From the IMG/VR virus record IMGVR_UViG_2061766007_001346, positions 1-64,000 of that record: a stretch of 64,000 nt of DNA; one strand, written 5' to 3'. Both the position numbers and the translations under genes were made by a program. Under the pieces are notes generated by a model, which saw only the letters and a list, made by a program, of their open reading frames with translations, did not search any database and had not been told where the DNA came from. Within the stretch, counting starts at the first letter, position 1, and every line of letters starts with the position of its first letter. Source of the DNA: a virus (taxonomy: Duplodnaviria > Caudoviricetes). Shown one piece after another: positions 11,399-42,049 of the stretch.

Positions 11399-11442
11399 AA
11401 TAAAGCCCCTATGCCATTTCGGTATAGGGGCTTTATTTTTTT
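11399..11442. terminator. Bidirectional intrinsic terminator between the convergent gene blocks
   Basis: AATAAAGCCCCTATGCC-ATTTC-GGTATAGGGGCTTTATT stem with A/T tracts on both sides. Confidence 0.9.
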
Positions 11443-14400
11443 ATTTTATTGTGCTTCTAAAAGCGTTAGATAATTCACGAGTCATTCCTAATGTGTTTGT
11501 AAGTCCATATAGTAAACTTTCATTTCCATTAACAATGCCCATAAATGTACGATAGTAATTCTTAAGCATTCCGAAGACAGGTGGTGTTCCATCTCCAACA
11601 ATGCCACTGATTGTTTGGAATAATGGACCGTCGGTAGACGCACCTTGTAGAACACCGTAAGTTCATCTGGATAAGAAGTCTTGATGATAAATAGGAGTAT
11701 CATCGGTTCCCCAGAATAATCTAAGTAACAGACCAATGATTGCGAATTCTAGTAGGTCAAGCATTGATATATAGAGATTAACTCTATACTGAGGATTATT
11801 TTTTCATAATTCGGCAAACTCTTCTCCACTAAGCGTAAATAGATGGGTTGCAAGAATTCAGCTCGTTTGTGCTTTACCAATGAAATAATTACCACCGAGA
11901 ACCTTTACGTAATGTGTACCATTTAATTTCCACATTTCTTCAGTCACCTTATCTTCTGGCATTCAGACCCAGTCGCCATGTGTTTGATATTCTTCGTCGG
12001 TTTGTGCAGGAACAGCAACCATTCGTTGACCATTGTCATCTAAAACATTCTTATATGTCAACTCGTTAGTTCAAGTTGGGTTGGAGAACCACAATTGGAA
12101 CTGAGCAAGACCATAAGTCTTATATTGGAAGAATAATGAGCCAAGAGTTTGTTTCTGAATTAAGGACTTGGTTTCATCATCGTAGTTACCATACTGAGTA
12201 TCAGCAAAGTTTTTAACACGTGCTGTTTCCATTGGAGATAATGCTTGTGGTAGTAAATCACCGTATTTTAATGAATAACCAGATTGATTCCATGATTCGA
12301 GAGCCTCTAAATAGTGCTGTTTTTCTCGTTGATATTTTATACGTTCTTCAATTGTGGGGAACGTTTCATTATCTTTGTATCTTAATCAGGTTTTATACTG
12401 GTTATCTTTATGCATATCATATACTAGACGATCGTCGTCATCTTTAGAATACGCATCTCATGCACCAATAGTCTTTAAATGTCCTCCAAGAATTGCCATT
12501 CTATGAAGGAAATCTGGCGCAGTAGATGTAACACTAGATTTACTAGGAAGCCCAAGAACAGTTCATTGGTGTCGTTTTGTAGATTCTATCATTTCTCGTC
12601 CAGAGAAAGCAACCATACCAAAAATAGCATTTAATTGAGAATAGAATCCAAAGATACTGGTATTATCAAATATCTTTGCAACAACATCTGTGTAACATTC
12701 TACAAAGTTAGAATAATCCAAGAATTCTGGTTCAGTAAAGAATCGTTTAGTACCTTGTACAAAAGCATTGTGATTTTCGGCATTGGCTAACCATCTGTTA
12801 AAGTGTTTCTTTTGTCCAGTTAACACTTCTCGGAAGAAAGCACGGGTATTTCAACCTAATGCGACATTAGCTGTAATACTTTTTAAGATACCAAGGATAC
12901 CATTAATTGCAGCTTCTTCAGGATTTCTGATATCCTTTAGAAAGAATTTACTTGCAATAAACTTTTCCATAGCTTTACGAACTTCAACAACATCCAAACC
13001 ACTTGTGGACATCATATAGTCTGTTGCAACTAACATTGCTGTAAATAATTCACAAAACAGTGGAGATCGTTCTTCACGAATTCCTGAAAATAATACATTT
13101 AAAAACACAACATCAAGATTTTTTTCAAGATAATTTACACCATTATCTCTAATAAAACTGTTTCGTTCTTCATCAGATTTATTAATTAAACTTGATAAAT
13201 GATCTTGATCAATATTTTCTAATTCTTTACGAGTACGTTCTACGACATTGGTTTCTTTACCGCCCAAAATTACATCAATGCTTTCGTTTTTAAACTTATC
13301 TCATGAATGACGAAACGCCTTTACTGTTTCGCCTTTTGTTAGTTGCTCTATGAATCCAGCGGCCATTAATGGAACTTCATACCAGACAGCTTCATTGCGC
13401 ATATCATCTCTTTCATTTACATCTGGCCAACGATATTTTCCATTTATTTCTAAGAAATGTTCATAAGCTTTTATAGTAGCGGGCTTATGATTCTTTTTAA
13501 ATTCTTCCGGTTTAAGTAATCTGAAAGCTTCGCTTACGGTACCATCTGGATTCTTTTCAAACCATGAATCAAAAAACGTTCAATCGTCGCCACGAGCATC
13601 TGACCATCCTTCTTCTTTATAAGCAGCATCGATTAGTTTTGACCACTCAAATTGTTCTTTAACAAATTCTAAACGCACGCCCGTATTAAATCGCATAATC
13701 AAGTCACCCATTTGCCTTGCTAATGCAGACTTGGATTCGTTAAAACTACGCATATTAATACCGCTTAAGTTGATACCTTTTATGATAGAACCCAAATCGT
13801 TTTCTTGGAATATATTAATTTTTTCTAAAGACAATAAGGCCTTATTAATATACGCATACGCCTTTTTAATGTCAGAATCATAAGATTTGATATCTCTAAG
13901 ATCACCTAATATATCTGGTTCTATACCCTGCAATTTGTGCATTATTTTAATCAAAGATTCTCTTGTAAAGTCTTTATCAGTTCTTCTCATATCTATTAAA
14001 GAACGATACCTTTTGTGTTTTGATTTGTCAGTATCGCGATTTGAATCGATAAATAAAAACTCAAGATATTCATCAGCGATTTCCATCGAAGCTTTTGCAT
14101 CTTGTTCAAATGTAGAGTATCCAAGTTTTCTTGTTCTTTGATTCCCTGGATGATTTCTATCATACAATTCTGCTAACAGGTTTCAGTTTTCAATTAAACG
14201 GGCGTTGCTTTCTTCGAAAACACGGGAGCTTTTGAGGTTAAGTGCTTTAATGTTTGTCACTTTAACGTTTTTAGTTAATTCCGGCTGCATTGCAAGAATT
14301 GCGCATGCCTTCATCAGCATCATGTTTCCATAATTAGCCTGCATGATTGTTCTGTTGTCCGTTAAACTACTATCATTTATATAATTTCCCAAAATACTAG

Positions 14401-15997
14401 TATTTCCATTGAATTTAAAATACTGATTAATTGGTTGTTCATCATCGATTATAATTATTTCCAATCGGTCACCCTTTTCAAACAAATATATTCCATTAGT
14501 ATTATATAACTCATTGGCTTTGAACTTCCATCCTCCAAGAATATATCTTCTGAAATGATGTAGTAATGTCTTGCGATTGTGTGGTGCGATTGCGTCAACA
14601 GTTGCTTCAAAATCGTCCATATTGTGAATAGACATTGCATATTGTAAGTCTTCCGCAAAATGTCTAAACTTATTTGCACGTCATGCATTTAGCTCGTTAA
14701 CATACTGTCTATATGGTGCAATTTGTACAGTTCCGTTTTCTAGTGTCTTATCTACAGTTAACTCAGATTTAGTTTTACCAAAAACCGGTTCGTTTCGCTT
14801 GCTCTTTGTAAGCCTACGGTTTCTTATGAAATAGAATCTAAATCCTTTTTTATAAGCGTCTGAGCCTTCTTTAACAGGATGAATACCGTAATCAACCATA
14901 TATGAATAATCCAGTGCCTTAGATTGTAATCTTGCAGCAATAGGTGTATCTGGGAACGACTCGTTTAATATATTTGCAACGTCTGTTATTACAGATTCCT
15001 GTGCTTCGGGCGCTTTTCAGAAGAATTTAGTTACCTGGTCGGAAGCAATTCCTGAATTTGGAACACGGATTATATTATCTGAATGAAATGTAATGTCGTC
15101 TAGTCGCAAGTGCTTATATTTATCGGCTTCGTTATCCGTTTCATTTGTATAGTGAGTTTCATAGACAATAAGATAGTTTTCTCCAACAGTTATACCATAA
15201 TTTTTCAGTATAGCTGCGTATGTTTGTACCTGTGCAACATATCTCTGGTGTCTACGTAAAAACTCACTTGGATCCTTGCCAACATCGTCAGCAGTTTTAA
15301 AATCAATTATATGAGCAATACCGTCATCGTCGATAATAACAAGGTCGGCAATACCTCTAATTAAAGATATTTCCCGTGCCATTCGTTTTTGTTTTGACAA
15401 GCTGTCTTCAAACTCTTGGTCGTGATCAACCAATCACTTAGTCAGATCATCATTTCATGATTTTACTTGTAATCCAACTTGTGAGAAACACTGATCTTTC
15501 CAATTAGAAATTTTTATACCATAGCTTCTAAATCTTGGTAGAATTTCTTTTTGCCACGACTCAATAAGAGTTTTCTTCATATCATCTGTAACATAACGTC
15601 TCGCTTTGAGTTTCTCACCAAAAATGCTATTCAATATATTATCTGCTTCAGTTCCTACGACTTTTGGATCTATATATTTACCTGGTTGACTTTTTATTAA
15701 GTCATCCATCTCTTTTCATTCTTTCTTCTTTCCAAAATACAGGTCGAATAGGGTTGTTACTCCTGCCGAAACAGTGTCTTTATCTACACCTAATTTGGAA
15801 TCAAATTCTGCTCGTGCTTTATTTAATTTAGAAATAGTTTCATCTTTCGACGTTAAAGAAAATATCTTATTGAAACCATTTTTTAATTCATCCGATATTT
15901 GAGATTGATGCTCTCTAATGAAAGCATCAACCTCAGCATCGGAGTGGAGCGCAGGATATGTTACGCCACCAAGTGTTATTTTAATATCACAACCCAT
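11441..15997 (-). CDS. Giant virion cargo protein (~1518 aa) with N-proximal PD-(D/E)XK (RecB/Cas4-like) nuclease domain
   Basis: Fragments 12563, 12851, 13580, 14183, 14681, 15017, 15455 and 15716 share one frame and each ends at TGA; IRGIADLVII...IIDFKT...AQVQTY. Confidence 0.8.
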
Positions 15998-18900
15998 TAT
16001 AAACAACCGTCTCCATATTCAAGTTTATTATTTTCATCTCGCTTACTAAATAGTGCTTGTTTAATATTTCTTACAACTTCGTCGTTTGGTATATATATTT
16101 GTGCAAATTGAGATGTCGTCATTCCAGGTAAATTATTACCGAAAAGACTAAATATATCTCTGACAGTCGTATTACCTAAAGCAAGAGCCTCAATATCGGC
16201 AGGAACTTCAGATCCAAACAGATTGTTAATTGCAGAAATAGTAAAATCAATTAGGTCACTCTCCTTAAAAGTACCCGTACCTATTTGTTCATTCAACTCT
16301 CCTTCAAATCTTGTAGCAAAACCCTTTGCAAGATAATCAACAAAGACTTCTTCTTTTATGTCAGAGTCCCGTCTACCACGATATTTGTTTTTCATTTTCT
16401 CGTACTCTTCGGGGTTTTGTTGTACAGCTTCTTCTACTAATCTATAATATTGTCTTCTAATATTAATATCGGGATTACCTTTTACTCCCGCAAGAATTAT
16501 GTGTAAGAATTCGTGTATCGGCTTGTCGATAGAAGATTTCTGTAAATTAACGTAAATTGTTCCATTGTAAATGAACGCTGGAGCATTTACTGTTCTTGTA
16601 AAATCTTCTTCGTCAGCAAAACGAACTGGACCTTCTCCTGATTTATACATTTGAAGTAAATCTTCCTCACGTATAACTTGTATCAATTCTCGATTGGTAC
16701 CCATCGTGGCCAATTCGTTGATTCTATTAATAATGGTTCTAACAACGATACTTGATATAGCATTATCTTCGGCACTCTTTAATACACGATCTTGTTGCAG
16801 ACCCAGCTCTTTTCGAGCAACAGTCTTAAATAACTGAGAATTCAGAATTCTGAACGGGAACCATAGTGTGTAATCCGAAGGATCGAGTTTAGGATCGAAG
16901 ATCTTCATCTTTTGAGACTGAATGGAATTACCGTTTCTATCGTAAATTGTTAAATTATACGAACTACCTGTTCCACTAGGTTCGATATTATAATAATATT
17001 TTGCATTAGCAAAATCAGCCAGTCTTATTCTTAAGTCATTTAAGAAATTGTTTGCTGTATTTAGCTTTGGATCAGCATCATATCCTAAGTCTTTTCTAAA
17101 CAAGTCTTTATAATCAATTTCTCCGGAATCCAGTTTGGATAGATACTCATAGAACTGCTTATTAAACGAGAATTTATTAGAAGCAGTATTGGAGTCTTCA
17201 AATAGTCTGGTGAAAGCCTGCGACGTAAATCCATCTTTATGTACATATAGATTATACAAGAACAGTAGGTCACCAATCTTTCATCTACCATATTTTTCTT
17301 CCATTTCTGGAGGAAGATATTGTTTGGATACTTCGTTGAACGCCTTAGAAATATTTTCATATTTTAACTGTAGCGTACTATTCTTAGACGCTTCAGATAC
17401 ATCAAATGACAGTCTATAGAATATCTGCAACCTATCTAATGTATTATTATGGAGATTACCTATTAATAAATCACTCAGGAATGCATTATCTGGAAAATGT
17501 TTCTTCAATTCCGGTATAATGTAATTGTCCATTAAATTCTTAAATGTTGCCAAACCATCAAGTGTTGATAACGACATGCTGTCCGATAAGACCGCTACCG
17601 TTTCACCATTTGCGTTCTGTGTAATTTTATTAATATGGCCAATTCCATCCTCATAGTATTTTGCACCAATAGGAATCTTAATTTTTAAATCAGGTTGCTG
17701 CTCAAACCATTTTAATATAAGAAGATCACTCACATAATTTCTTACAGCACGTCATTCTTTGGGATTAAGTGCTTTAGTATCACCATGATTGAAGGCACGA
17801 ATGAGTTCGTCGCCTAACATAAACTCGGGAACCAAAGGTTGTTTATCCGCTAGAACAAGTTTGCCTACAAGCTCTCTCTCCATTTTCAATGCAACCGATT
17901 CTTCGAGAAGTCTTCTATTCAAGGGAATCATTTGTAACATTGCATAGAAGTGAGGAACAGAGATCAATACATCTAATAAGTTAAATGTGTCTGCAACCTT
18001 ATTATAGTATTCAATTTGTCTATCACGATATGCGATGTTGTTTTTATCTAAGAATCTAACGAAATCAAACGGCTCAAAATGTTCATTAGAATGTTGAGTT
18101 AAGTACTTTATGTATTTATCGTTTACAAATCGTTCAACTTTTCGAATATTCTTATATTCGGAATAGTCATCTGTGTCTAAACCACCGTTAATACCAAGAA
18201 TACTACCCAACATCTGCTGTTCTTTAGTAGCCTTTAAGATTTTTTCTAGACTCATGTACTGCATATATATAGGATTATCTGCAACCGCTTCATATCCAAT
18301 CTGTGCAAGTGCTTTATTCTTAGGAATTAAGAAGTTCTTTGCATATCTATATGCAGTTAGTCAATCTTCTTTCTTTAGTTCTCCGATCTCAAAGAACATA
18401 TCTGTATCATAGAATGCGTCTTGTTCATCATATACGTCTTCTTCATCATAGAACTGCTGTTCGTAAAGTAATTCTGGATCAAGATCGCCCAAATTATCAT
18501 TAGCGCTGCCTGTTTTTTCTACACCAGTCTTAAGAATTCTCAGTAAGACGTCGTTTGCCGTAGGATCAATTCTTAATAATGAGTAAATGGCGTCAACAAT
18601 TCAGTCAGAATTTTCGTCACGTAACGATTCAATTGCACTACGTATTGCAGTCATGTCTTCGATTCGATAGTTCGTTGAAGCAAGTCCAGATTTAGAGTGA
18701 CGTTTGGCGTTAGTATATATATAATATAACTGTTCATCACTAAATCCGGTATCAATAGTAACACCATTTTTTGTATAAGCCCTATTAAATAGGGATACAG
18801 ATGTACCACTATCATTCTGTTCTTCTGCATATGTACTAAGAATCTTTTTAAAGACATAGTTATTTATGTATGGCAGTGTTTTTCGGTCTAATACAAAATC

Positions 18901-21900
18901 AAGTGCATTTTCTGTTGTAAACCGAGATGTATTCGGATCTAAAACAGAACGTTCGGAATATCGAGTAATAATATTGAATGCAGGAGATGCCATAAAGGAA
19001 ATTACATCTTTTGGTCTTGAACCAGTAATGGTCATATAGGTGTGGAGGTCTGCAAATTGAGATGTCGCGTTCATTTTTGCAAGCTTCAGCTCCTTAGCAT
19101 TATCGGTTGCAAGAGACGTATATCCGGAAAGAACCATATTAGCATCTTTTGGATTTGCGTACGTTCCGTTTGCATAAATGTCTAAATCATTAATCAAACG
19201 ACTGAAATTTAATGTAGTTCCTGTTGTATCAACTTTTTCGTTATTATTTTCATCAACAGCTTTATATGCTTTTAATGTTGTTAATCGAGGTGTATCCAGC
19301 GATATGTTACATACAATTTCTGGTAGCTCACTAACCGCAACTTTGGCTAAGTCAGTAAACCGTAGGTTAGCAATAGTTGCAATTCCGGACCTTAAATAAG
19401 GATCTTTTATAAACTTAGCATCGAAACAGATTTTCTGTAATTCCCGCACAATCTGATTACCCAGTTCTATATTATGTGCACCATTTGTAACTAAGTCCGC
19501 TTGATATTGTTTCGCAAGATTAACCACATTTAGAATTATATTATTGCTATAGGTGGTTAATGCAAAGAACGCTTTTAAAGATACTGCAGATATACCAATA
19601 ACATCTCGACCAACCATATTATCACGCTGAATTCTATATTTTGTCGCAGGATTATCCCACGTTCTATATAGTTCATACATATACTCAGGATCCGGAATGT
19701 TATTCTTTAGTTCATTCATGGCTTCATCGACAGGAAGATTCAAGTTACCCTGCGTAATAGGATCGCGAAGCATCTTATTAATTCTATAAACAATTCTGTT
19801 TCGATATCCAGCCGTTTTCTTGGCACTCGGTAATTTAACACTATCCTGATGCAATCTGATACGCTCGATTATTCTGTTCTTAATCGGAATATTCTCCGGT
19901 GAATCAAAAGCATCTTGGAAGACAACTGTTTCTCCACCCAATAAGATTCTTTTTAAGACATTAATTGGAATTTGATTTCTCTGAATATCAGTGACGGCAA
20001 TATATGTATAATCTCCACCTTTAGATTTATCAAAATTAGCCTCAGATATAAATGTAAATTTCTTCTTATTAGGAAGGGGGAGTTCAAATATATCTGTTGC
20101 AGCATAGTATCTGTCTAATTTTGAAGGAGTTACAATTTTACCATCGTCGGAAATTTCATATGTCATGATGAATCCCTTATCGATATCAAAGTCAGAGCCT
20201 TGTAACCAAGCAAGGAATGCAGACATGACTAATGCATTTTCGTCTGTATCAAGTAGCATTACAACATCAGCAGATGTAAAAGATTGCATAGACTGCGAAG
20301 GAATACGGTCAATAATGACTTGCAACTGAAGCTTGAAAGCCTCTCATTTCTTATTAGCCTCATTGTTGATATTACGAGTCTGACGTCTATCCTCTTCTTT
20401 GTTCAAATTTTCAATGGCCATTTCATTAACCATATACAGATCACCGTCTGCCATTTGTTCAACAAATGGACGTCCGTCAACATCTCTACCAATCTGAGAA
20501 ACTAATTGTCCATCTTTAAAGTTATGTCTATACCTATAGCGTACGAGATCCTTATAGTTATCTCTGGTATAATTAAAGACTTCGTTTATATATTGACCAT
20601 TATTACGTAATTCCTCGAATGCGTTCCAATCATCAACAACTACAACATTTCAACTCTTTCCAGATTCGTCGACATATTCTCTAAAATATTTGCCAATCGT
20701 TGTACCAAAATCAACACCGTTCTTCCAATAATTATCACCCCTTACTTTGAATCTCACGCTATCGATAGTATTGTCAATTCTTTCTGAATTCCTATCGAGT
20801 CCGCCAAACATTACTAATGTTGGCGTTCCATCAGCTTCATATAATACAGCATCGTAGAAATTGCGGTCAATTTCTTTTGGCTTCTCAGCAAATCTTCTTA
20901 TCCTACGTCTGAAGAATTCTTGTTTTAAATCAAAGACGTCGTTGATTGTGTCACCTGTTTGTAATCCAAGTTTCTGTGCAGATAGTTTACCTAATCCGAC
21001 CTGAAGTGGATGAAACTCGTCGACACTTATATCGAACTCATCGTTTTCATCTGGAACAACCTGACTTCTAAAGGCATCCTGAACCTTGAATTTTGTCTTT
21101 TCGCCGCTCTTAGCTTTAGATAGTGCTGGAAGTAGTTCGTTGTTAACGTTTCATTTGGCAAGTAAGAAAATCTTCTCCAATAAATCCGTATCTCTAAATA
21201 TCTCGCCGTCGAGTAACCGTAGCGGTTCGCCCTCTTGTTCGGGAGTATATTTTACATAGGGATTTTCTGTCAAATCAATTCCCAATCTCTTTTGAAACGC
21301 CTGATATGTCGTTCCAAACTGATTACCAATCATGCGAAGTAGCGTGATTCCTTTATCAGTTAGATTGATGCGCTCGACAGTGGTTTCAACGCCATCAACT
21401 ATTACAGGTTCTTGTGTAAACGTAAAGTAAGAAGTATCTTTTCCGCCAGTCTTTCTTGCGACTTTGATGTCAGAGGCAACATTCTTTATGTCATCTATAA
21501 TACGAACGAGGTCTGTATCGTAGATACTATATTGTTTACCATTAACTGAGAATAGAATTTCACTACCGGAGAAGTTTTTAGGTTTTACAGTCCAATTATA
21601 GAGTATTCGACCTGGAACATTTCTATATTTAAAGTCATATAGTATGGTAGGGTCATCGAGAGTTACAACCTGTGTTCCGGTTGCATCGCGATAAACAATT
21701 GTATCGTTTAACTTAATGCTCTCAGGAGAAGTGATACGAACAATCGCTCTATTATTAAATGATAGACCGTTTCATGATGTATCTGTGGTCATGGCGATAG
21801 CATTTCTTCTACCACCAACAGCCTTACAGAATTCAACTCAGTTTAGACGCTTTCCGTTGTACATAAAGTACTGTACACCACCGTACGAAGGGGTTTGAAT

Positions 21901-24900
21901 TGCGCCAAGTCCGGCAAAACGTCTTCTGATAGCATCTTTATTAAGGAAGGACGTAATTGTAGATTGGAACGAACCCTTAATAGTGTTGGCACTGAACGGA
22001 ATTCTGGTTTTGTAAGAACCGTTTGCCAAATCTCTGTTAGCAATAGCAACAAATGACTGTGCCAAACCCAATACGTCTTTCTGATTCGTATCAAACGCTT
22101 TTACAAGAGCTTCGCCGATGATTTGATAAATTTTGTTCTCATCGTTTGCATCAACCGCATCAATTATAGTTCTGACTGAATCCAAAGCAACAGAACCAAT
22201 CATCTCGTAGATCTCGTTCACATCTCCCATTAAGTAACCGTTCTGTACAAGAGCGGATATCATCTGGGTCATTTCTCTAACACCACGAGTGTCTTCAATT
22301 TCATGGTCAGGATTCATCTGAATTCCATAGTGTAGGGTAGATACCTCAAACCATTTAGGAGTAGAAGCGTTACCGTACTTTAAAATTTCGGGACTGTTAA
22401 TGTTACGAACACCAGTTTTAATGGCAGAACCATTAACAGCTAATGCAACAAACGAGTCCTTTAAGCCTTCTTCACAAACAATTACATTTGCAATATCGAC
22501 GTTTGCTTCAGATCATACGAACTTATTAAGTTCGTCACTTCAAACTTCACAATATGCACCACCAAATAATTGGTCAATACCATAAGTAGTATTTTCTAAT
22601 AGATATTCTTTATGGGTATTTGCTTCACCAGTAGGGTCACTAAACGGAGTATGATCTTCATTATAGTACTGCCATTCGGCAAAGACACCATTTTCGTCTC
22701 TGCCAACTCTAACAAGTTTTTCATGCATCAACAGATCCAGATTATATCTGAATAAGTCTCCCATAAAGGTTACGTTTTCGTTCTCTTCATTAAAGTGCTT
22801 AGATTTGCCATAATATTTTGTAAAATCGATGTCTCCGATTTTATTATTCTTAATGGCGTTCATTATCTTGAACAGCGTTTCAAACGAGAAATCAGTAACT
22901 TCGCATCCTAATCGACGCATTTCGTTTGTTAATACATACTCGGCAAATTTAAGTTCACCACCAGTACCAGTTTCTCTATCTAACCAGTTAGCGAATGTTT
23001 TCTTCTTCTGATCACCAACTCTACGGTCTAGCAGGGAAAAGTTCTGTTGTCTGGAAAATTTAGGATCACAAAACGCACCACCATCTTGAGCATCTTTGCT
23101 ATCTTTATGTCCAATAAAGTTATAAACCTTTGCCTGGATATCGTCAAACGCCATTAATTTCATGTGTGACGAAATTCCATACTTCGTACCCTGTGCAAAA
23201 TAAATTTTAGATGCATTAGCAGAAACTGTACGTTTTGACATATCCGTTAATCTTGACGATTCGTCTTCGTCAAGATATCTCTTAAAAGCGTCAGATACAT
23301 CTTCTCCTCTTAAGAAACGGAATAAGTCATCAGAACTTGATAGATTGAATTTAGCATGCTTTCCTTTATATCCGTTCACATCGCCAAATAATAAATCATT
23401 AAACTGACCCGATAAGAAGGAATCAGCATAGAAGAATCCTTCTAAGATAGGATTGAGCTCAAATTCTGTATTACTTCAATCAACATTGTTTAGATCTGTT
23501 CAATCAAAAGCGAATTCTTTACCATCTCGTTTTGCAATAAATAACTTCATTGAACCGTCAATCGGGTCAAATCACGTACCGTGTGTTTTTTGTTTTTCCC
23601 TAAATATTGCTCTTCAGCTTGGATTAGTATTAGGATCAAGAGTGAAACCTATTTCCATCAAGTCGCGAATGAACTTAAGTTTTTCACGTTGCATTCTTTG
23701 TCTGAAGGCTTCTGGAGAAGAATTAGTCTTTAATTGATTAGCAAGGGTTATATTGAAAGTAACTTCCTTATTATCAAGTACATTATAGTCAGACACGTAT
23801 AAATCAGCAACATCTCCGAATCTACGTTGAAGCTCAGCCTTTGCGTTTTTACCATATGTATCGGAAAATTCCTTTAATTTTTCACTAGCTCTATAGAAGT
23901 AATCGAGTACCGACTCGCCTTCACCTCGTTTTAATCCTCAACCCAATGTTGCAGAGAACCTTTCAATAACGTTCAATGCTTGTGCTTCATATTTACTAAG
24001 ACGGACTTTACGCATTTCTTCTTCAAAGAACGCAATAGCTTCGTCGCGTTCGGGATTGAAGTCGGAAATTGATTTAAGTAGATAACTCAATCGCTTTCCA
24101 TTAAGTATAATGCGATTTAATTTAAATTCCACAATATAATGAGTCCGTTTATCGGAATACGCAATGGGCTGGATTCAAATAGAAGTATCGGTTATTTCGG
24201 TTTTCTGTGCCTTCTTGTCATTTTTAACCAAAGAGTTACTTCCAAATAAGTTACTATAGAAGTCTACAGCAATTGCTTCCTGCATTACTTCCGCCGGTAG
24301 TAACTGTGTGGAAATCTTTGATGTGTCGTCAATTTTTGTTTCAGCTCTTGTCGCAATTGTTCCAATAGCATTACCGGCCTGTATAAGTACGTTGTTGCCA
24401 AACACACCATCACGTTCAAGTTGCGTCATGTTTTCATACTGTCCAGTATTCATATTGAACATTCGTATGTTAGAACGTTCCGTCATTGTTTGCGGATTTG
24501 TGAGTCTATATATTTCACGTTTGACGTCAAAAACAGACGTTCTTAACTGACTAGTGGGTAAGTTATTTCCTTCCGAGTTCTTAACAACCGTTGCATATTC
24601 TGCACCGAGAACAACACTATAGAAGTTTGCAATATCTCTAAAATCGTAATAATATTTATGTAATTTTAATTCTTCGCCACGATATAGATATTCATATCCA
24701 CTATAGAGATTTTTAGTTGGATCGGTTTCACTTCGGCTACTAGCAGTCAGTACAATAAACGCAATCTGGGAGAAGGCGTCCCACGCAGTATCCTTGATGT
24801 TAGGATTTGTAGAATTCCAAACCTGAACAAAGTCGGCAGGAAGAACTAAACCAGTTACATCTTCAATGAACGATTTTGTAAACGCATCGGAAATTTGTTT

Positions 24901-26412
24901 ACGGCCAATGGTTACATTATCTGTGTTTCTATCGACAACAAACGAATACTTATTTTTTTGAGGATCTAAGTTACTTTTGACCTTATATTCCAAGTCGGCA
25001 AATCCTTTGTCATCCGTTAGTTTTATCGTAGATGTATTGCCACTATTTAATGTAACGGATATAGGACCAATCTTGATACCATATTTGGTTATCAAATCCT
25101 GTAATAATTGAGGATTATTTCTCAACTGATATACACGGTTCTTTATAATACGTTGGATGCTATATAACTGACGATTAATTAGATTAGATTCCAATAAATC
25201 GGACACAAAACGAAATGCATTTGGTCCCTTTTCTATTGAATCCGGATCATATTCTAATCTATAGCCAAGATATGCATATCTTACAGATGTTATGAATTGG
25301 TTTCCAAAAATTCTTTTAATATTCTCATCAAGATTAGGATTCTTGAAAATATTATCGTTAATTGCTCTTGCCGCGATTTTAATTTCAGAAGTAGCTGTAG
25401 ACTTTTGAATAAATGTATCAAGTAATTGTGCAAAATTACTACCAGTTTCTGTTGTAGCAACAGCCTCTTCTAGACCAGTATATAGCAGTTCACGATATGT
25501 ATTTTCTTCGTGATTTTCTGCTCATTCGATAACCTGGCCAGAAACAGCTTGGAAACGGGCAAGTTTGATTGGAATACCATTAGCATCTTTGAAATAGTCC
25601 AATAGTAATTTCACAAAGGAGCTTGTATAGTCTTCGGTTCCTGCAGTTTCACTATAACTCGAGAAACGGTCTTTATAGTTAAATGGACCTTTACTCACAT
25701 ACATGTCCTCTCCGTAAGTGCCGCTTAAAGCATATTCGGGCTTTATCGTAATATAATCAATTTCGTCTGTGAGAAGTTTATCAAAGTGAAGTAAAAGTAC
25801 ATAATCATCCATGTACTGTTTCCATTCTCCAGAATTATCTGATAAAGCCTTTTTATTAACTCTATAAAGAACACGCTTCACAAATCTAGTAAAGCTGCTC
25901 GACTTATCCAATACAGGAAGCTCTTTACCAGGTTCGATATATTGGTATAAATGTTTTAGTAATTCTAGTTTATAATTATGAAGGTTTGTGCTAATAGACT
26001 CTGGGTCTACCAGTTTACCATCTTTCAATAATGTTCTTTCTACAATATTTTGTCTGAAGGTGTTAACCATTCTTTCGTACTGCATTCGTAGTCCACCGTG
26101 TTCGGTATATACAGAATATGCCGTTAAGTCGGAAACATCTTCATCATTTGCATATGTGATTTCCTTATGCTCTTTAACTGGCTCCAGAGTGACTTCTTTT
26201 TCACCAAAGGTACGTATGAATTCAACAAAACTATCTTCGTCTATTAGACCGGTTGGATTTGAATCCGAGCTGATGCCCCTAAGTAGGGCATCAGCTGTCT
26301 CGGGTTCAAATTCAGATTGTATGTATTCTAATACGTCTCCATCCCAATAATGATCAAGCATGTAATCAAAATAGGTGTCTGGATTATACTTATTATTTCC
26401 ACAACCTTTCAT
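15997..26412 (-). CDS. Virion-packaged single-chain DNA-dependent RNA polymerase (~3471 aa) with C-terminal zincin domain
   Basis: Eleven in-frame fragments joined via TGA; DRIPSQSMQS and QGSDFDIDK (20179-20193); DAQDGG..KKKT second barrel; PIHEFLH..KEE (16501-16515). Confidence 0.9.
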
Positions 26413-26426
26413 TTCTTTTTATAAAA

Positions 26427-29400
26427 TTATATTACACATTTTGGTTCTCCTGCTTCATGTCAGGCATTATACCAACTAACTAATTCGCTAAAGCTTTCAC
26501 TATTTGTCGCGTAAGAGCCATTTCTAATCGCCTTCTTAAACTCGACTCATAATTGGGACTCTGCTTGCGATAATGACGCTTTATAGAATTTTTTCTTGGC
26601 GATATCTAAATACGGGTCGACTACGCCATCTAAGTTAATACTTTTTATTCAATTTTCAAAATTTTGTGATTTGTCTGGTTTCTCGGTTGGAGCAAACAGT
26701 GTTGCTTTCCAGTCTCCGTTTTCGATTTTTGCCTCTCCCTGATACATTAAGACATCATCTTGTGTATATACGGAGAAGTTATATGTACTTCCAATAGTAC
26801 TATCGACTACGATTTTATAATCATCATATTTTGAATCAGGTTTGTCTTTAAGAATTTCTTTTAGAATGGTATCTTCCATTGGTGAATTCTGAACAATACT
26901 AATTTGTCCATTATCTTCAACAACGGCTGTAAACCGTCCGCCAAGAACTTCTTTATTACTATCAAGATAAGCATTTATAGCTTCAATGGGATCAGAAGAT
27001 TTACTTAAATCCTGTACAAATTTATTGAACTCGCTAATTTTAGTTCTAAACAAATTTAGTCCAGATGTTAATCATGAAACCAAATTATTTTCAACAAGTA
27101 TCTGAGAGAATCTGTCTTCCAGGAACTTTTTATCTGCTTCTGGATTGAGATTATAATCAGTTTTATCAATTCGGACAGTCTTCTTTTTAAAGTTAATCGA
27201 CGTTATTCTTCCGATTTCATTTAAACCACTATAGTCAGAAATTTGCCTTAAGAACCAAGACGGGGCGGTTAGATTTCCCTTCACAACCCACAGATTATCG
27301 TTCTTATGAATTGTTGTTTCCTTTGAGAAGCGAATCTGAGATGGGTCTCTCTGTAAGAGAACTCTTCCTTCATTTGTGAAAATGTTGAAAGGAAGTTCGG
27401 ATTCATTGCCCTCAATGTTAACTCGAATACCTGTATCGTTTGAGAAAACTAAATTAACCTTATGCAATGGTCTATTTGGAGCGTTTCAGTCTTGCTCAAA
27501 AATTCCAGCGGGCGTACTATAATAATGCATCGGACCATCTTGACCTATAAAAGTCTTAGAACCATCAAACAACGGATCGTTATCCGACCGTACTATAATT
27601 CTATGTATTTGGTCCATATCACCAAATGCTTCAGAAGACAGATATATATAGTATTCTCCAGAATTTGTCTTCATTGAACCATGGTTCTCAAAATTATAAT
27701 ACTTATCGCCGATCTTTAGTTGATACTTATTACTTTTAGCCACTTGAACAAGTTCGATTGTTTTATCCTCATACTTATATGTACGATCGGTTCGAATCGT
27801 TCCAAATTTACCATTCTTGATTTGTTCCGCACCATTGAAATCTTTTAACAATTCATACAATCGTTCTCTTGGATTTTCTGTTTTTATAGTAACTTCTCTA
27901 TTATGATTCCCATTGGATAGGGTAACAATGATTGAATCTCTTGTGGCTCTAATATGATCCATTGTTCTGAATTCTCCAATACTATTACCTAGTGCTTTAC
28001 GAAGTTCATCGTTCAGTTCAACAAGACAACTCATACCGTTTCGTGTAAAATGAATTTCGTATCCATTTAGTTGCAAGTCGACCAGACTAAATTGGTTTAC
28101 ACGTTTTTCTAACAATTTATCATACGTTTGTTCCAACTTAAGTTCATCCTCATTCTCGAATTTAGACGAAAGATTCATACTATATAATGGTGCAAGTACA
28201 CGAACGATATCTCAGCTCAAACTATTTATGTTTACATTTCCGGTAGACCATAGTTGTTGATGTGGAATAATTTGCGATACAGCAACAATGTGCCTGAATA
28301 TACCGTATTTAAATATGTTAGAGGTCTTGATGAGTTCGTCAAGCGAATCGCCATCAACCATCAGTTCACGATCCTGATTAGATAGTAATGTGATCAAATC
28401 GCCTTCAAATGGCGAATAGAATCGGAAACCGCCGTCCGCTTCTGGGATTGCAGTCGCCAACGAGAACATTGCACGATTTGTTTCAATAAGATCGTAAATA
28501 GATTCTGCAGTAAAGTCAGGATTAATAGACCTAATCGTTTGTGCAACAGCGTCATTGTTTAGTAATGTCTGAATAATTGATTCTAGCGTATTACCAAAGT
28601 CGGTTTCATTCTTAAACAAATCGTTCCAACTAATAGTACCAATGAGATCCTTATTTACAGCAGCTCTAGATGTCTGAGTCCAATATACATCAAGCATATT
28701 TGACCCGGACGAAGATGGTATGATATAGAAGTTAAGGAACTCTCTATCCGGCTTTAATGAGAAACGAAAACCTCTATGTCTAAGCTCTTGTGCTCGTACC
28801 GAATAAACACCAGTTCTATATATAAGATTTTGTGTAAAGTAACTTAATTTATCAGAGCCCTGCTTTGAGAAATAAGAGAACAGTGCCGATATAATACGGT
28901 CTACATCATAGTTATGTAGTATATTATATTTCGATCGGATAGTTCTTAGTCTCTCTGCAGTTTCCTGAGAGTAGTCACCTGTTTCCAACGCATATATAGC
29001 ATGAAAATCACTCCTCACTTCTTCCTCAGAATTTCCAAAAAATTCTGCAACTGCCTTAACGGCAGCTTGGTCGTTTTCGCCAGAAACATTACCATATGAT
29101 AAATGATTGATGTAACTGATGATATTTAAGAATTTATCAACTGCAGCATCGTATTGTACACCAGCGATAGCATATAAGTTTGGATCGTCGTTTAAGAAAT
29201 ATTGATAATGCCCATCTTTTTCTGGAGCAGTAAATAGTTCTCGTACTTCATCGTCGGATAATCCGAATTCATGCAGTAACATTGCGTAGGCATGACCTTT
29301 ATTACTTGCAAAATATTCGTTTCTGCGATTTATCTGATACTGATCGGAACCTAAGAATACCGCTGTTACAGGAACACCATTCAGATTTGCAAGATGTATG

Positions 29401-32400
29401 GATTTTGGTAATACAGCACGTAATTTCGCTCTTTTTTCTCCCTTACTCGTAATTGGAATAACCGGCGTTTCCTGTTTGAACATATCATCCGTAATCTTTA
29501 TGAATCCGGGCTCGAGATCAGAATCAAGTGGTGTATAAATAGAAATTGGCAATGCGTATCCATCGAAACAGTAATACAACACCATCTTTCCTTTATACAG
29601 TCTCTTGTAAAGAACACCCGTTCTATCTCTTAGTGATTGTTCAAAAGATATAATAAACTTACCGTTTACACCAAATAACTCATTTCTGTGTAAGTTTTGA
29701 GCTCTCCTGTTAAACACGCTCATCCAATCCTTAGGACTGTGGTTTAATACAATTCCGCTGAAACCAAGAAGGAATTCCTTAAAAGATTTAACAACCTGTG
29801 CGCTAGGAGTACCCGTCTTTATAAACGGATTGTAAGGTGTTAATTCTGCAAAATCTGTTTCGTCAACTCAGTTTGCAAAATCGTCAATATCAACAATCGA
29901 TTTACCACCATCCGCTTTGAGTGCCAGATACTTTTTAAATGCTTTTAATTTCATGCCTTTTAGTCCAATACCTAACGTTTCATCACCATTAAACTCATCA
30001 TTTGCTTTTGTGGCAGGACGGCTAATTTCGTCATCAGTAGCGTTTTCTGCTTCTTTTTCAAGCTCACTACCAAGTTCTTGCGCGACTTCTTCTACTGTTT
30101 TAGTATCATCTGCAAACGAAGAAGCTTCGTGTACATGTTTATATACAGGTTGGACTGGTTTTGTGGGCGGTCCGGGTTCTTTTCCTTCAGGATTTTCTTC
30201 CGTTGTTTCGGAAGCAGCTTCTCCAGGAATTGTATTCAACGCATTCATCTTAGTTTCAACATATTCTTTTGCAGAATCTGAATTAGGATCGAAACTAATA
30301 TCAAGTGTTGCCATCGGAGATTCATTTGCATTGGCGATTCCAAGCATTTGTAAGCCCATGGATTTAAGAATCCTTGTACCCTTACGTGATCTAGTTAATA
30401 AGGTATATGCTTTTTGATACATCGAGAACTTATTATCCTTATTTACCATACCAAATTTTTCATTCAGTATCACATAATCCGCTTCATCACCCGGTGCGTT
30501 TTCTACAGTTGTAAATCTTACATTAGGATTGTCCTTATGTTTTTCACGTACAGCTTCAAATGTGCCATCTGGAGTAACAACCAATAACGTTTCGTTTTCC
30601 GCTAAACCGTCGATCATTCCGTTAATCAGAGTATCGTCGATTTCTGCAACAATTTCAGTACCAGCAAGTTTTTTATCTGGAGTAAATCCATATTGTAACA
30701 TTACTGGAGGAACAGTTACTTCTGATAACGCTAATTCCTCTGATCAACCCGGTTTATCTTTCTTAGCATCAATCATTTTTGCGACATTTCTTCCAAGAGC
30801 GTCATCGTTTGTAGATTGACCAGAATTGGCGTTTCTCATCGAAATCGTCAGTTTGGTAGAGAAAATTCCGATACAGTCGTCAAGTCCAGCAGATATACCG
30901 GTCGAAGATGTTTCGCCAGCCTGCATTAAGTTACCAAGACCAATAATATGAACACCTTGTTCTTTAGCAGCATTTGTTAATGCGGTTCACAGACCTTCCT
31001 TAACGAGAGTGCATTCATCGATTGTTAATACACGAAGTTGGCCGTCGACAGGTTTACCAAAAATTGCGTCAAAATTGATCTTCACTTTTGGATCAGACCA
31101 TACGTGACTATGTGCAGTACCAGTACGTTCTGTATCAGACTTAATATAATCACTCTCGTTAAATTTGTCAACACCTAATAATTTAGCCATTAACTCGTTA
31201 AGAGAATATGTGCGATCTGCATCAAGTCCCATACCTTCGGCGCGCGCTCTAATCTTAGAAACAGCGACTTCGTTAATCCCGTCAAAGAAGGATAGTGCTA
31301 TATTATGAATAACAGTACTCTTACCACATCCTGCAAAACCATCAATGATTACAGTGTTCCAGAGTTTTGTTCTACTGAGTAGGTATCTTTCATTTAATTC
31401 AGTGTCATCTGGTTTATCTGGAATAATAATGCCGCTATCTAATGCAGCTTCCGTAGAATCGTAAATTGCATCGACACCGTTATTTATCATTTCCGGATGC
31501 ATGAGTTCCAAGCATATCAGCCTGATTGCTAATTCCTGACCAAAGAACGGCTTTTTGCCTTCCTGTAAGAAGAACTTCTTCAGTTTGTTTCCGAATCAAT
31601 AGGAATCTACACCAACTATAGTTGCAAGATATGTAGCGATATCAAAGTTTTGTAAAGTATCATCCTCTTCTTTAGAAAGAATGCCGTTCTTCATCTTATA
31701 TATATCGTTAAATGCTTTAAATATATTATAAGAAACGGTTCCCAGATTTAACTGTTTTTCTTCGACATGCTTATAAATTCTGTGCTCTAAATCCTGGAAA
31801 GCGACCATTGATTTAACTTGATTTTCCTTACTATTGTCTTCAAAATCGTATGTAAGTAGGCCAAGTTCATCAATAGCGGCCTTAATATCAAAATCACCTA
31901 AGGCTTCTTGAACTTTCTTAATAATTTCTACAGAATTGTCGTCATCATCTCTTTGATTAAAGAAGTTAATAATGTTTCTATAGAAATTCTTTCTCACAAG
32001 AATATGCTCGCGTTCCTTAAGTCCACGGTTTCTTCCATCAAGTTCTCTTAGGTATAAGAGTTGATTCTCGAGATAATCAAGATCGTTCTTATAAATATAA
32101 GCAATGTCGTTGGGGATTACTGGCAATAATTCAGCGCCCTCTTCTTTGAGCATCTCATTTGCAGACTCATTCATTCCTGAACTTGCAGCAAAGATAACAC
32201 CTCTTACAACAGGAAGAATATTTTCTGCCATTTCGAGTTGAGTTCTACTGAATTGATTACTATAGAAATATTCAGTGACACCTTTTTGGCCTAGCGTAGC
32301 TCTCTCGTTTGCAATTATATCTAATAGCGGATTTTCTGTCCCCATTAAAGAGAACGTTAGTACCTTTGCTAGTTCAATTGTCGGAGTAAGCTTTAGAGTC

Positions 32401-35400
32401 TTAGATATATCAACAGCCTGCTTCATCTTCTCTGCGATAGACTTAAGTAGGTCTATATTAAATATATCCATAACCGCCTGTTTTGCAGCAGGATCTTTAG
32501 CAACATTTACGTTCAAATCCTTTTCGAATTTTTCTATCAGTTGGATAGCTTTTTCTGGATCCTGGTAAAGACTATCAAGAATAGCTTTGTAACGATTAAC
32601 TGTATCACTATAAATAGCAGTATTTGTTCTATCGAAGAACCTATTCTCTGCAATATAGTTGTCTCTCTCGTTCTTAAGTCTTTCTCAAATTTTTTCGCGT
32701 ATCTCGTTTGACCATTCTTCGTCATCGACAGCTTTTTTTAATTCTTCGATGTCGTTCGCAAAACGAGGATCATTTTCAAACAATTTGATAATCACCTCAT
32801 TATTCGATTCGTTTTTCATCAAATCGTATTCATGAATTACAGGGGTCTGTTTGATAAAATCCTCCGTATTAACAGGAACGGCATTAATGCGTCTTGATAA
32901 ATCTTGACTGATGGCCTTAAAAGCATATTTGATAAAATCGTCAGCACCTAAACCAACGATGTTCTGCTCTTTCATGGCCTTATACTGATTTATTGCGAAG
33001 TCGAGTAACTTATGATAACGTTGCCCGATCGTTAACGCGTTGCCAAGCTCGTCTATACCAGAATTAATAATAATATCAATTTGTCCGTGTAGACTTTGGA
33101 ATAGTTCGTCGAGATCCGGATTTTCGGCATCCAGTGCCTTTACGTTGATACGTGTAGCACGATCGAGTAAAGTAGACGGATCTACGTTTTCAGGATGTTC
33201 GAGCGTTTGACCATATACATCAGATGTAAGATTGACACCGGTTATATCGCCAAGTTGCTGTTGTAACACAGGAGTAAACAAGTCCTGTGCATATTGGAAT
33301 AGTTCGTTAGAGCGTTGAAGAGCATCGATTCCTGTGGACTTAATATAGTTCTCGTATTCTTTATCAATGATTTTCTTTTCGTTTTCATCAGCATCACTAT
33401 AGGTGGTACGATGTCTTAAGAATGCAAAGGAATCTTTGCTGAGAACGTTAGGGCCCTGAGCGGAAATCATCGAACTAACGAGACCAGAATGTGAAGCGTA
33501 GTGAGCATATCTTATGTAATAAGATGCCGCTTTACCACTAAATAGTGCTTCTAACTGTTCTTGTTTCTGTTTCTTTTTTTCCTCTAGGTCTTTGATGAAC
33601 GGATCTTTGTTAATGGCTTCGTTTCGTTCTGCAGAACGTGTGTCTGGGAACTGAGCCGTTAAGAATCCTTTGCGGCCTTCAATTTCTTGTTCTAACTCAA
33701 CGATATCGAGTGCGAGATTACCAAAATCGGTAAGAATGATATTTGCAAAACCAGTGCGTTTGGCAAATTCCTCAAAGTTGTTGATTTTATGCTTTTTACG
33801 GTATTCCTGTTCAGTAATTCCTTCTTTTTTGGCACCCTCTTTAACTTCCTTACGGAGTTGGTCCATGATAGGATTGCCACTATTTTCGAATTGTTTAAAC
33901 TGTTCGGGAGAAAGAACCTTACGTAAAACTTCTTCATCTGTAAGAAGTAACTGATTCTTTTTCATTATTTCCGCAAGAGCTTTGATCTTAACCTTAAGGG
34001 CGTTATACACAACGTCGTTCTGGCTAGGTTTGTCTCCCTTCTCATCTCACGTCCAAACTTCCTTGGATGGATCTGTTGCATCTTTTACTCATTTTCCATC
34101 CATGGACAGATTTGTATTAGCAAGACCACGCTTATATAGACGATTTAATTCACCTATAGTACGATCTTCACCATATAATTGAATTGCTCTGATAAGTGCA
34201 CCATCGACACCTGTGCCAGTATATTTAGAAATATTACTATTGAGTACTTTGCTATGCCAATCGTCCAATCCTTGGAATACAGCGCCACCAACAGCGCCAC
34301 CAACAAACGCCGTTGCATATCGTTGCATTGCGTCGTTCCACGTAAGTCCGAATTCAAGCTGATCATGAGTATCGTCAGAAATCTTATATCCAAGATGTTC
34401 AAGTCCGAGAGAAACGAGTTTGATGACATCAAGAGCCTGCTCTTCCATTACTTCCTCAATACCTTCGTTTAATGCATGATGTACATATACACCACCAACA
34501 TTCTTTATCGCGCCAACGCTTCCGGGTATTGCAAGATCTAACGCCTTAATAGGAGCGAAACTCTTTTCCGTTCATGCCTGTTTGGTAGCATTGAATACGC
34601 GTTTAAATAGGTTCTGAGCTTCTTTCTCCGTTGCGGTAGGAGCCAATTTCAGTAAATGCTGTCCTTTCTTACTAGCCTTAACACTCTGCGCAATTCCATC
34701 TGCTACAATATCAGACTGTTTCTTAAGAGCGTCTGTTATTTCAGGTGCTGCGTTGACCCAAGTATTTCTGAATAACCAGCCTTTAAAATAATTGGACTGC
34801 ATTAATCCGAACATTGCAGCAGTATAGGCAAGCATAGAAACACCTGCTGATACATCAGACATGCCGGCTTTCTTAAAGGTTTCTAGTGAGCTTTCTGCAG
34901 ACGTTAATGCCATATAACCAAGGCTCATGGATCCGAACAAGCCTGTATTGAATTTCGTTGAAGGAAGTTTTAAGATTTCAGGAATTCTTGTAAATGTTCT
35001 CTGCTCAAACAGTTGTTTCGCAGAAGTAACAATCATATCACCGATATTTTCAAAGGACCACTGATTTTCAAGCGAATGTCTACTCTTAGACGTGTCAAAT
35101 TGCGAGAAGAACGCAATTCTGTTATTAAGTCTCTTACCATATTCGGTACTATCCGAATCGTGTGTAAGAATACCATTTACAGCTTTAGCAAGTACTGGTA
35201 GTGATCTTGCAAGTCCATATACAGCACCAATGGCACCAAGAGCGGGACCAACATATGGAATCAAGTATGGAGCGACCATAGTAACTGTTCTTGCAATTGT
35301 ACCGGCAACACTCTTATCCAAACTATCGTTGTCAAAGAAATCATATTTGTTTAGCCAGGTGTCTTCAGCAGTAAGGGTGTCTGTGTAATGGAGCATCTCT

Positions 35401-36020
35401 TTGCCAAAAGAACTCTCTCCATCACGAAGCTCCTTATAATACGGATCTCCCGTATCTGGGTCTAGCAACGGAACACCGTTTTCGTCAGTAGCAATATACA
35501 TCGGCTTTCTTGATAATGCCTTGAACAAACCGCCCTTATCGTTTGGTGTATAGTCCAAGACATTATCATCAGCGTCGTGAACACGATTAGCCTGAGCAAC
35601 CTCTCGATAATCATAACTTTCCTTTCCGGTTTCACGTAGATTACCAAGGCCTCTCTGGTGTCGCCACATATCGTTTACTTCGAATACTTTTGTACTAGTA
35701 TCCCAGATGTTTGTATCACCCATTCTGGAGATATCTTCTGGACTTCTTGCAATACTTTTTACAATAGTATCCGCAAAATCGGTATTTGCTCATTCGTTAT
35801 ATGCCCTTCTAGCACTATCATAAAATTGATTAAATGCGTTCTCATCAAAATTTCCTTCGTCATCAGAAAATCGTTCAACTACTTTATCAATTCCTTTGTA
35901 ATAACTCGCATCCTTTAGTCCGGTGTTACTCGGAGTAAGGCCATACGCGTAAAAATCTAATAATGTAAAATCTTCTGGTGCATTTAATTGTGCTGCAAAA
36001 AAGTCATTTAATTTTTCCAT
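26427..36020 (-). CDS. Giant virion cargo protein (~3197 aa) with N-terminal hydrophobic helices and an internal SF1 helicase domain
   Basis: Twelve in-frame fragments joined via TGA; GFAGCGKST, LTIDE, GNLMQ, TTVENAPGDEAD, YTLLTRSRKG; Gly/Ala-rich hydrophobic segments near the N-terminus. Confidence 0.8.
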
Positions 36021-41758: not shown

Positions 41759-42049
41759 CTACTTTACTTTCAGACCTCCACAAGCCTTCTTACAACCTTT
41801 CTTTAACTTACCGCCCTTTTGGAATACGGGTTGAGCTTCGGAACCTTGTTCTGACTGCAGGAGTTCCATAATGGCCTGAGCAAGTAACATTGCTGCATCT
41901 GGACCCATCTCTTGAATAATCTGTGCTGCCATTTGAGCGATTTGCTGCATTGCGGCCTCTTGTTCGCCACCCTGCATAGGAGCGGCCTGAGCTTCCGGAG
42001 CTGCTGCCATAGGAGCAGCGCCACCCTCTTGAAAACGTTTTATCTTCAT
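41759..42049 (-). CDS. Small Ala/Gln/Met-rich putative internal virion protein
   Basis: MKIKRFQEGG...FQKGGKLKK; has its own promoter and terminator. Confidence 0.75.
   Translation of the reverse strand: MKIKRFQEGGAAPMAAAPEAQAAPMQGGEQEAAMQQIAQMAAQIIQEMGPDAAMLLAQAIMELLQSEQGSEAQPVFQKGGKLKKGCKKACGGLKVK

Follow-up and report, generated by a model that had tools for sequence, protein, structure and literature searches.

Cysteines at the facing termini of giant RNA polymerase-associated proteins of crAss-like phages point to a link between consecutive proteins

The giant proteins that are associated with the RNA polymerase (RNAP) of crAss-like phages carry a cysteine (Cys) close to each terminus that faces the next protein of the series, whereas no Cys is found at the two outer ends. 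We describe this rule for three giant genes, A, B and C, of the IMG/VR virus record IMGVR_UViG_2061766007_001346 (Duplodnaviria; Caudoviricetes), a complete 177-kb genome of which positions 1 to 64,000 were analysed; this whole stretch of 64,000 nucleotides (nt) is called the window throughout, and the labels A, B and C denote the position in the series and not strict orthology. All four inner termini of the window proteins carry a Cys, at position −3 of A, at positions 4 and −2 of B and at position 3 of C (negative positions are counted from the C-terminus), whereas both outer termini, the N-terminal one of A and the C-terminal one of C, lack Cys. An earlier note on this DNA had reported precisely this distribution, and it holds to the letter, with A ending PKCVI, B beginning MKGC and ending DGCL, C beginning MGC, and MEKLNDFF and FRSTIK as Cys-free outer ends. 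Moreover, the comparison of orthologs that was proposed with it, which expected Cys at the inner termini, none at the outer termini and a loss upon gene fusion, was passed across Crassvirales and beyond. As each protein break is flanked by one C-terminal and one N-terminal Cys, which never lie at an outer end, and as a pair comes with each fission and is missing at fusions, a specific link that restores the continuity of the chain is the simplest reading, and it can be considered likely that each facing Cys pair serves such a link between consecutive proteins.

Read with the standard bacterial code, the region falls apart into many open reading frames (ORFs), whereas three adjacent minus-strand genes appear when TGA is read as tryptophan; the coordinates of A, B and C were obtained by ORF calling with translation table 4 (Table 1). 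The last TGA codon of A encodes W3187, and the C-terminus of A is only seen with TGA read-through, as had been stated before. A and B are separated by a gap of 14 nt, and the stop codon of B overlaps the ATG of C (TAATG). The three proteins, which the earlier note had called Cys-poor, contain only 0.22–0.33% Cys and two cargo proteins encoded upstream contain 0%, compared to 1–2.8% in most other genes of the window. Due to this depletion, the terminal Cys are, judged by composition, kept despite a general purge of Cys from the cargo proteins. The Cys frequency lies far below that of the phage proteome, as in the Schitoviridae, and a total absence of Cys was not found. At a content of ~0.25% Cys the chance of finding a Cys at each such terminus is ~1–2%, so that its presence at four of the four inner termini is far beyond chance.

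The helicase, RNAP and nuclease labels given to A, B and C by the earlier note are borne out by the Pfam matches Viral_helicase1 and AAA_30 in A, by the GSDFDID motif of B together with a profile alignment of B to the annotated putative RNA polymerase gp50 of crAss001 (hhalign probability 88%, E = 3e-6, 158 columns), and by the Pfam match PDDEXK_1 in C. B is thus a giant protein with a DFDxD-type motif that is homologous to the crAss virion RNAP. Furthermore, tblastn from the window reaches the crAss-like gut phages MT835492 and MT835470, and the gene plan is crAss-like, as seen from the ORF map of the window, the gene tables of its relatives and those of p-crAssphage, crAss002 and FpV4: a structural block is followed by Cys-free cargo, the three giants and divergent early genes (ThyX, dNMP kinase). 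No close relative was found among GenBank phages or in IMG/VR by megablast and two pattern scans of viral contigs, PHROGs gave no match for A, B or most structural genes, and the profile of B had no sequence match in the PDB. The best explanation of these sequence data is that A, B and C represent the RNAP-associated cargo of a divergent, TGA-recoded crAss-like phage, which, considering homology, synteny and Cys depletion, is probably packed into the virion and ejected. An HExxH zincin-like domain directly precedes a Cys junction in three distant lineages, namely in B of the window, in gp45 of p-crAssphage (Intestiviridae) and in gp32 of FpV4.

The contigs of eight relatives share the order of the three genes, with Cys at all four inner termini and none at the outer termini. 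In these relatives the Cys of A is located at −3 to −7, and C begins with MAC, MGC, MEC or MANC. A full-length search with B gave eight distinct homologues with identities from 66% down to 27%, all of which have a Cys at position 3 or 4 and another one at −1 or −2, and C4 and C3470 are the sole invariant Cys columns of their alignment. In a set of 24 phages that includes crAss001, p-crAssphage and FpV4, a Cys lies no more than 10 residues from the end in 81 of 82 inner termini, but in 0 of 45 outer termini, with an overall Cys content of 0.22%. By chance ~1.8 matches would be expected at the inner termini, corresponding to a binomial P of ~1e-133, which ignores the shared ancestry of the 24 phages.

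The rule is also seen in the model phages phi14:2 and crAss001. In phi14:2, the proteins g067 (1797 amino acids, aa), g066 (the RNAP, 2180 aa) and g065 (1421 aa) contain one Cys as the last residue, two Cys at positions 3 and −2, and one Cys at position 3, respectively, so that these 5,398 residues contain no Cys other than the four at the facing termini. In crAss001, gp47 (2341 aa) has a single Cys at −3 and gp49 (1349 aa) a single Cys at position 5, while gp50 (2412 aa) has three, at positions 5, 1334 and −9. Here, gp47 is encoded on the strand opposite to gp50 and gp49, and DAC17 shows the same Cys pattern and strand arrangement. Both terminal Cys are present in 120 of 120 clusters of gp50-like proteins.

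For the C-type protein the comparison was extended with a profile of the 400 N-terminal residues of C, which was searched against 1.84 billion representatives and gave 85 full-length proteins, each less than 50% identical to the others. A Cys is present among the first 10 residues of 81 of these distant C-like proteins, mostly at position 3 or 4, and among the last 10 residues of only three, which is the level of chance. In an alignment of 30 C sequences with ~20% identity, C3 is as invariant as the D, D and K columns of the nuclease. Among the four C-like proteins departing from the rule, two have in-frame upstream starts giving MSNC and MSKSC, and the proteins upstream of these two end with KLVC and QECYE; a third is frameshifted after MSKNC, and the last is masked and not judgeable. 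The first three (L025 579, L027 4001 and L026 180) are thus errors of start or frame, of a kind that the rule flags. In crAss002 (NC_055828), the annotated start of gp33 is probably located 32 codons too far upstream (13088–13186), as the conserved MSC is found at annotated residue 33.

The cases of gene fission and fusion give support that is independent of the binomial P and its disregard of shared ancestry. In MT835492, which reads TAG as glutamine, five chained genes form four junctions with a Cys on both sides of each, i.e., eight terminal Cys. The first of these proteins, of 1540 residues, contains a single Cys at −5, and the middle proteins of 777 aa (the fourth, with exactly two Cys) and 804 aa each have two, one per end. 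In MT835470, which uses the standard code, A is unsplit (2967 aa) with its sole Cys at −5, and the three junctions of this phage comprise six Cys. The split between A1 and A2 of MT835492 maps near residue 1300 of the MT835470 A protein, a site without Cys, and therefore the split form carries two facing Cys at a place where the intact A of MT835470 lacks any. The B (RNAP) gene of MT835470.1 is also interrupted, at the catalytic motif GSDY/DFD, by an insert of ~1 kb (20210–21247), and here no Cys is found on either side. This insert contains two sub-threshold matches to group I introns (Rfam RF00028, E = 0.003 and 0.012) and a LAGLIDADG-like ORF; by these sequence features the break is one at the RNA level and not at the protein level, made by a putative group I intron. 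Where genes are fused, the Cys pair is only present at the remaining junction. This applies to the Intestiviridae (p-crAssphage, in which gp45 ends SFSCM and gp44 begins MSC, as well as cr11_1, Rudgehvirus, cr8_1 and crAss002), to the Suoliviridae (cr118_1, cr52_1, cr60_1), and to FpV4, in which the fused gp32 of 4287 aa has a single Cys at −2 and is followed by gp33 starting with MAC. Hidden Markov models of the terminal regions failed to place the former junction inside the fused proteins, as the termini are too divergent, and the loss upon fusion is therefore read from Cys counts, such as the single Cys of FpV4 gp32. The fused A+B protein of cr273_1 keeps the HK-x-C motif of the family, after which it continues with an acidic low-complexity tail of 48 residues (~19975–20125).

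With moderate confidence, the link suggested by these sequences would be a head-to-tail disulfide tether between consecutive giants. According to this mechanism, an intermolecular disulfide in the virion would join the C-terminal end of A to the N-terminal end of B, and another one would join B to C in the same way. Proteins made by separate translation would thereby be chained head to tail, running in the same direction as one continuous polypeptide. Partners, stoichiometry and perhaps order could thus outlast the unfolding for transit through portal and tail channel, and the links would be cut in the cytoplasm by the thiol-reducing system of the host. A Cys on each side of a chain break is what is expected of disulfide-tethered chains, and the position of the Cys only a few residues from the true termini suits a link that has to go through a narrow channel in the direction of one continuous chain. 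Lysine or arginine often adjoins the junction Cys (KC, CK, KRC, KKC), and such a neighbour would make a reactive thiolate more likely. That a polymerase machinery of ~0.6–1 MDa is delivered as one covalent pseudo-polyprotein, pulled through the tail in fixed order and polarity and then cut by host thiol reductases, is a tentative extension, to which we give somewhat less than even credence. In the window this would be the string of ~8,200 residues that the earlier note proposed to be threaded in order and released by reduction, and the redox state would in this case become a checkpoint of infection. In a still more radical version, the thiols would serve a ligation-type chemistry yielding a real peptide bond.

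Several points weigh against a disulfide tether. The argument is drawn entirely from the comparison of sequences, by which the partner of each Cys is not fixed, and the parity of Cys in crAss001 would also fit a pair of gp47 and gp49 together with an intramolecular link within gp50. Moreover, the C-terminal Cys of crAss001 gp50 lies farther from the end than usual, and in the sole exception among the 82 inner termini, that of cr273_1, the Cys is found as far away as −50. Most of the phages originate from the anaerobic gut or rumen, where spontaneous oxidation is uncertain. Neither thioredoxin nor glutaredoxin was detected in searches of the phage genome, and the crAss001 particles with tail disulfides, to which we return below, may have been handled in air.

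The pairwise conservation would look identical if the facing Cys of each junction bridged a metal ion, in a zinc-clasp-like or another thiolate site, instead of forming a disulfide. Such a site would be able to form in an anaerobic, reducing setting, and the HExxH zincin domain located directly ahead of the junction in the three lineages named above could be taken as a hint in this direction. However, each terminus has only one Cys, with no CxxC, histidine or second conserved ligand adjoining, and therefore a metal bridge is less likely than a disulfide. Besides this, a normal zinc site is not made by two thiolates, and junctions that are remote from any zincin domain obey the rule as well, so that we regard a metal bridge as unlikely. 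Zinc clasp and zinc hook, which require two ligands per partner, were rejected for the same lack of a neighbouring histidine or Cys. One Zn(Cys)4 site common to the four termini was also rejected, as it is incompatible with the three junctions and six Cys of MT835470. From the earlier proposal that A–B and B–C are joined at their Cys by disulfides or shared metal sites, the link between consecutive proteins is supported by the comparison, while one shared Zn(Cys)4 site is unlikely. Slightly less probable again is a pairing of the terminal Cys with other partners, i.e., the portal, the capsid interior, the small cargo proteins with a C-terminal RCGG motif, a second molecule of the same protein, or, in the case of B, its own two ends. 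Pairing is not visible in a sequence, and some small upstream cargo proteins indeed have a lone near-terminal Cys without an obvious partner, but this reading would leave unexplained why 0 of 45 outer termini have a Cys, why N-terminal and C-terminal Cys are always equal in number, and why one Cys per side is present at each split and both are absent at a fusion.

A role as regulatory or catalytic thiols, for instance as a cysteine switch keeping the neighbouring zincin protease inactive before ejection or as a redox sensor that activates the polymerase complex, appears improbable. It would go along with the invariant HExxH domain just ahead of the junction Cys in several lineages and with the suggestion of the phi14:2 authors that the zincin protein may activate the RNAP (bioRxiv 10.1101/2020.03.07.982082). 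However, a switch would need only one Cys, whereas each protein break has two that face each other, and the rule also holds at junctions remote from a zincin, such as A–B of the window, A1–A2 and C1–C2 of MT835492, and g067–g066 of phi14:2. By far the least probable explanation, with next to no weight left, is a nucleotide-level or translational signal (a bypass like that of T4 gene 60, read-through or a coupling motif) or mere chance, even though the genes of the window are tightly packed and TGT flanks each stop-start. TGC accounts for 9 of 76 junction Cys codons and for 28 of 243 other Cys codons in the same genes, i.e., synonymous codon use at the junctions equals the background. Furthermore, the spacing at the junctions varies from overlapping genes up to ~170 nt, an ATG lies 1–5 codons ahead of every N-terminal Cys, and the A-type gene is found on the other strand in Steigviridae, with crAss001 and DAC17 keeping the C-terminal Cys of this gene nevertheless. 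Bypass, read-through and coupling are therefore excluded, as is chance by the tally of the 24 phages. A split intein was rejected as well, since an N-intein of ~100 aa and a C-intein ending HN find no room where the Cys lies 0–9 residues from the C-terminus and at position 2–10 of the next protein.

The closest known systems are the phi14:2 series g067-g066-g065, in which g066 is the crystallised virion RNAP, and the crAss001 series gp47-gp50-gp49. Like the window, both have a giant, virion-packed, RNAP-associated block with a DFDxD-type motif, the same layout beside divergent early genes and exactly the same terminal-Cys rule, whereas the proteins of the window differ by their far greater size, their TGA recoding and a divergence beyond the reach of BLAST and PHROGs. 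Packing into the virion was shown by mass spectrometry for crAss001 (PMC10172136) and phi14:2 (bioRxiv 10.1101/2020.03.07.982082) only, and the crAss001 cargo detected in this way comprises gp45, gp46, gp47, gp49 and gp50 (PMC10172136). The order of domains differs, as the zincin is located at the C-terminus of B in the window, whereas the phi14:2 authors placed it in gp65, the last protein of the series (bioRxiv 10.1101/2020.03.07.982082). The crAss001 virion contains intermolecular disulfides in its tail, which connect the hub to the ring proteins R1 and R2 (PMC10172136). This means that crassvirus particles do carry intermolecular disulfides, but these are structural links of the tail and not links between ejected cargo proteins. 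The order of ejection in crAss001 is likely to depend on packing and on mutual interactions of the cargo (PMC10172136), and a statement in the phi14:2 preprint was counted as fitting flexible ends (bioRxiv 10.1101/2020.03.07.982082). The word "cysteine" is absent from the crAss001 structure paper (PMC10172136), the phi14:2 preprint does not mention cysteines (bioRxiv 10.1101/2020.03.07.982082), and no description of the terminal-Cys rule was found in the literature on disulfides or cysteines of crassvirus cargo or phage ejection proteins.

AB toxins offer a mechanistic parallel, since an interchain disulfide holds their chains together during unfolded translocation and is reduced in the target cytosol. 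As in the crAss-like giants, two Cys flank the break between the chains. However, the toxin break arises when a single gene product is nicked by proteolysis, with both Cys in a loop, whereas the crAss-like proteins are separate gene products with Cys at their true termini, of which up to five would be joined in series, and there is no sequence relationship. In the N4-like phages (Schitoviridae virion RNAP gp50/gp71 with the partners gp51/gp72 and gp52/gp73), a giant virion RNAP is likewise ejected together with its partners and Cys is strongly suppressed. These proteins are essentially free of Cys at their termini too, whereas the crAss-like proteins retain exactly the junction-facing Cys. The near absence of Cys from the N4-like ejected proteins has been attributed to the periplasm that they have to cross (PMC11445570).

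The rule bears on the question of how megadalton cargo including an RNAP passes through a narrow tail. Among the viruses of the human gut, the crAss-like phages are the most abundant group. If the tether is real, it would provide a concrete mechanism for the order, stoichiometry and co-delivery of the proteins, it would explain why these giants tolerate gene fission and fusion so freely, and it would set them apart from the N4-like phages with their Cys-free ejected proteins. For annotation, the rule marks true protein termini, corrects start codons and distinguishes intron breaks from real gene splits.

Table 1. Giant genes A, B and C of the window, with their domains, junction-facing Cys codons and upstream cargo genes.
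Feature	Position	Strand	Details
Giant A	26427-36020	−	3197 aa, 7 Cys; N-terminus MEKLNDFF without Cys, C-terminus PKCVI
SF1 helicase / P-loop region of A, residues ~1556-1747	30780-31355	−	Walker A GFAGCGKST; Pfam Viral_helicase1 E=7e-6, AAA_30 E=2e-4
A Cys3195 codon TGT, position −3, facing B	26436-26438	−	kept in all relatives
Giant B, virion-type RNA polymerase with C-terminal zincin-like domain	15997-26412	−	3471 aa, 9 Cys; MKGC...DGCL
B Cys4 codon TGT, facing A	26401-26403	−	invariant alignment column C4
B GSDFDID catalytic-type motif	20179-20199	−	D2074, D2076, D2078 invariant
B HEFLH (HExxH) zincin motif, ~170 residues ahead of C-terminal Cys	16501-16515	−	H3300, E3301, H3304 invariant
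B Cys3470 codon TGT, position −2 (penultimate), facing C	16003-16005	−	invariant alignment column C3470
Giant C	11441-15997	−	1518 aa, 5 Cys; N-terminus MGC, C-terminus FRSTIK without Cys
C Cys3 codon TGT, facing B	15989-15991	−	invariant in 30-sequence alignment, ~20% identity
PD-(D/E)XK nuclease domain of C	14945-15679	−	Pfam PDDEXK_1 E=5e-6; D218, D232, K234 invariant
Two upstream putative cargo proteins, 626 aa and 1255 aa	36022-41669	−	zero Cys in either

Besides the junction Cys, three further terminal motifs were observed in the cargo block. The Cys-free N-terminus of A has a conserved N-D-[FW] motif (MEKLNDFF, MLNNDWIV, MNDIKKPNDWF, MAQNDWIA), which was seen in the window, MT835492, MT835470 and L005, spans clades less than 30% identical and may mark the leading end of the proposed chain. 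Small proteins of the upstream cargo block carry at their C-terminal end a lone Cys within a basic R/A-C-G-G motif (KKACGGLKVK, RCGGHRR, FRCGGKKKIA, RCGGSVKRKMKR); one of them is encoded at 41759–42049 on the minus strand of the window, others are p-crAssphage gp48, crAss002 gp30, L019 gp62 and L024 g49, and there is no evident N-terminal Cys facing them. A basic motif K-[FYL]-Q/x-x-G-G is located at the N-termini of the window proteins starting at 37902, 41669 and 42049 on the minus strand. It also opens the A-type protein gp45 of p-crAssphage (MDVLKFLQGG) and a 638-aa protein of MT835492 (2054–3970; MNLKIQKFAEGG), and it may be a targeting or processing tag.

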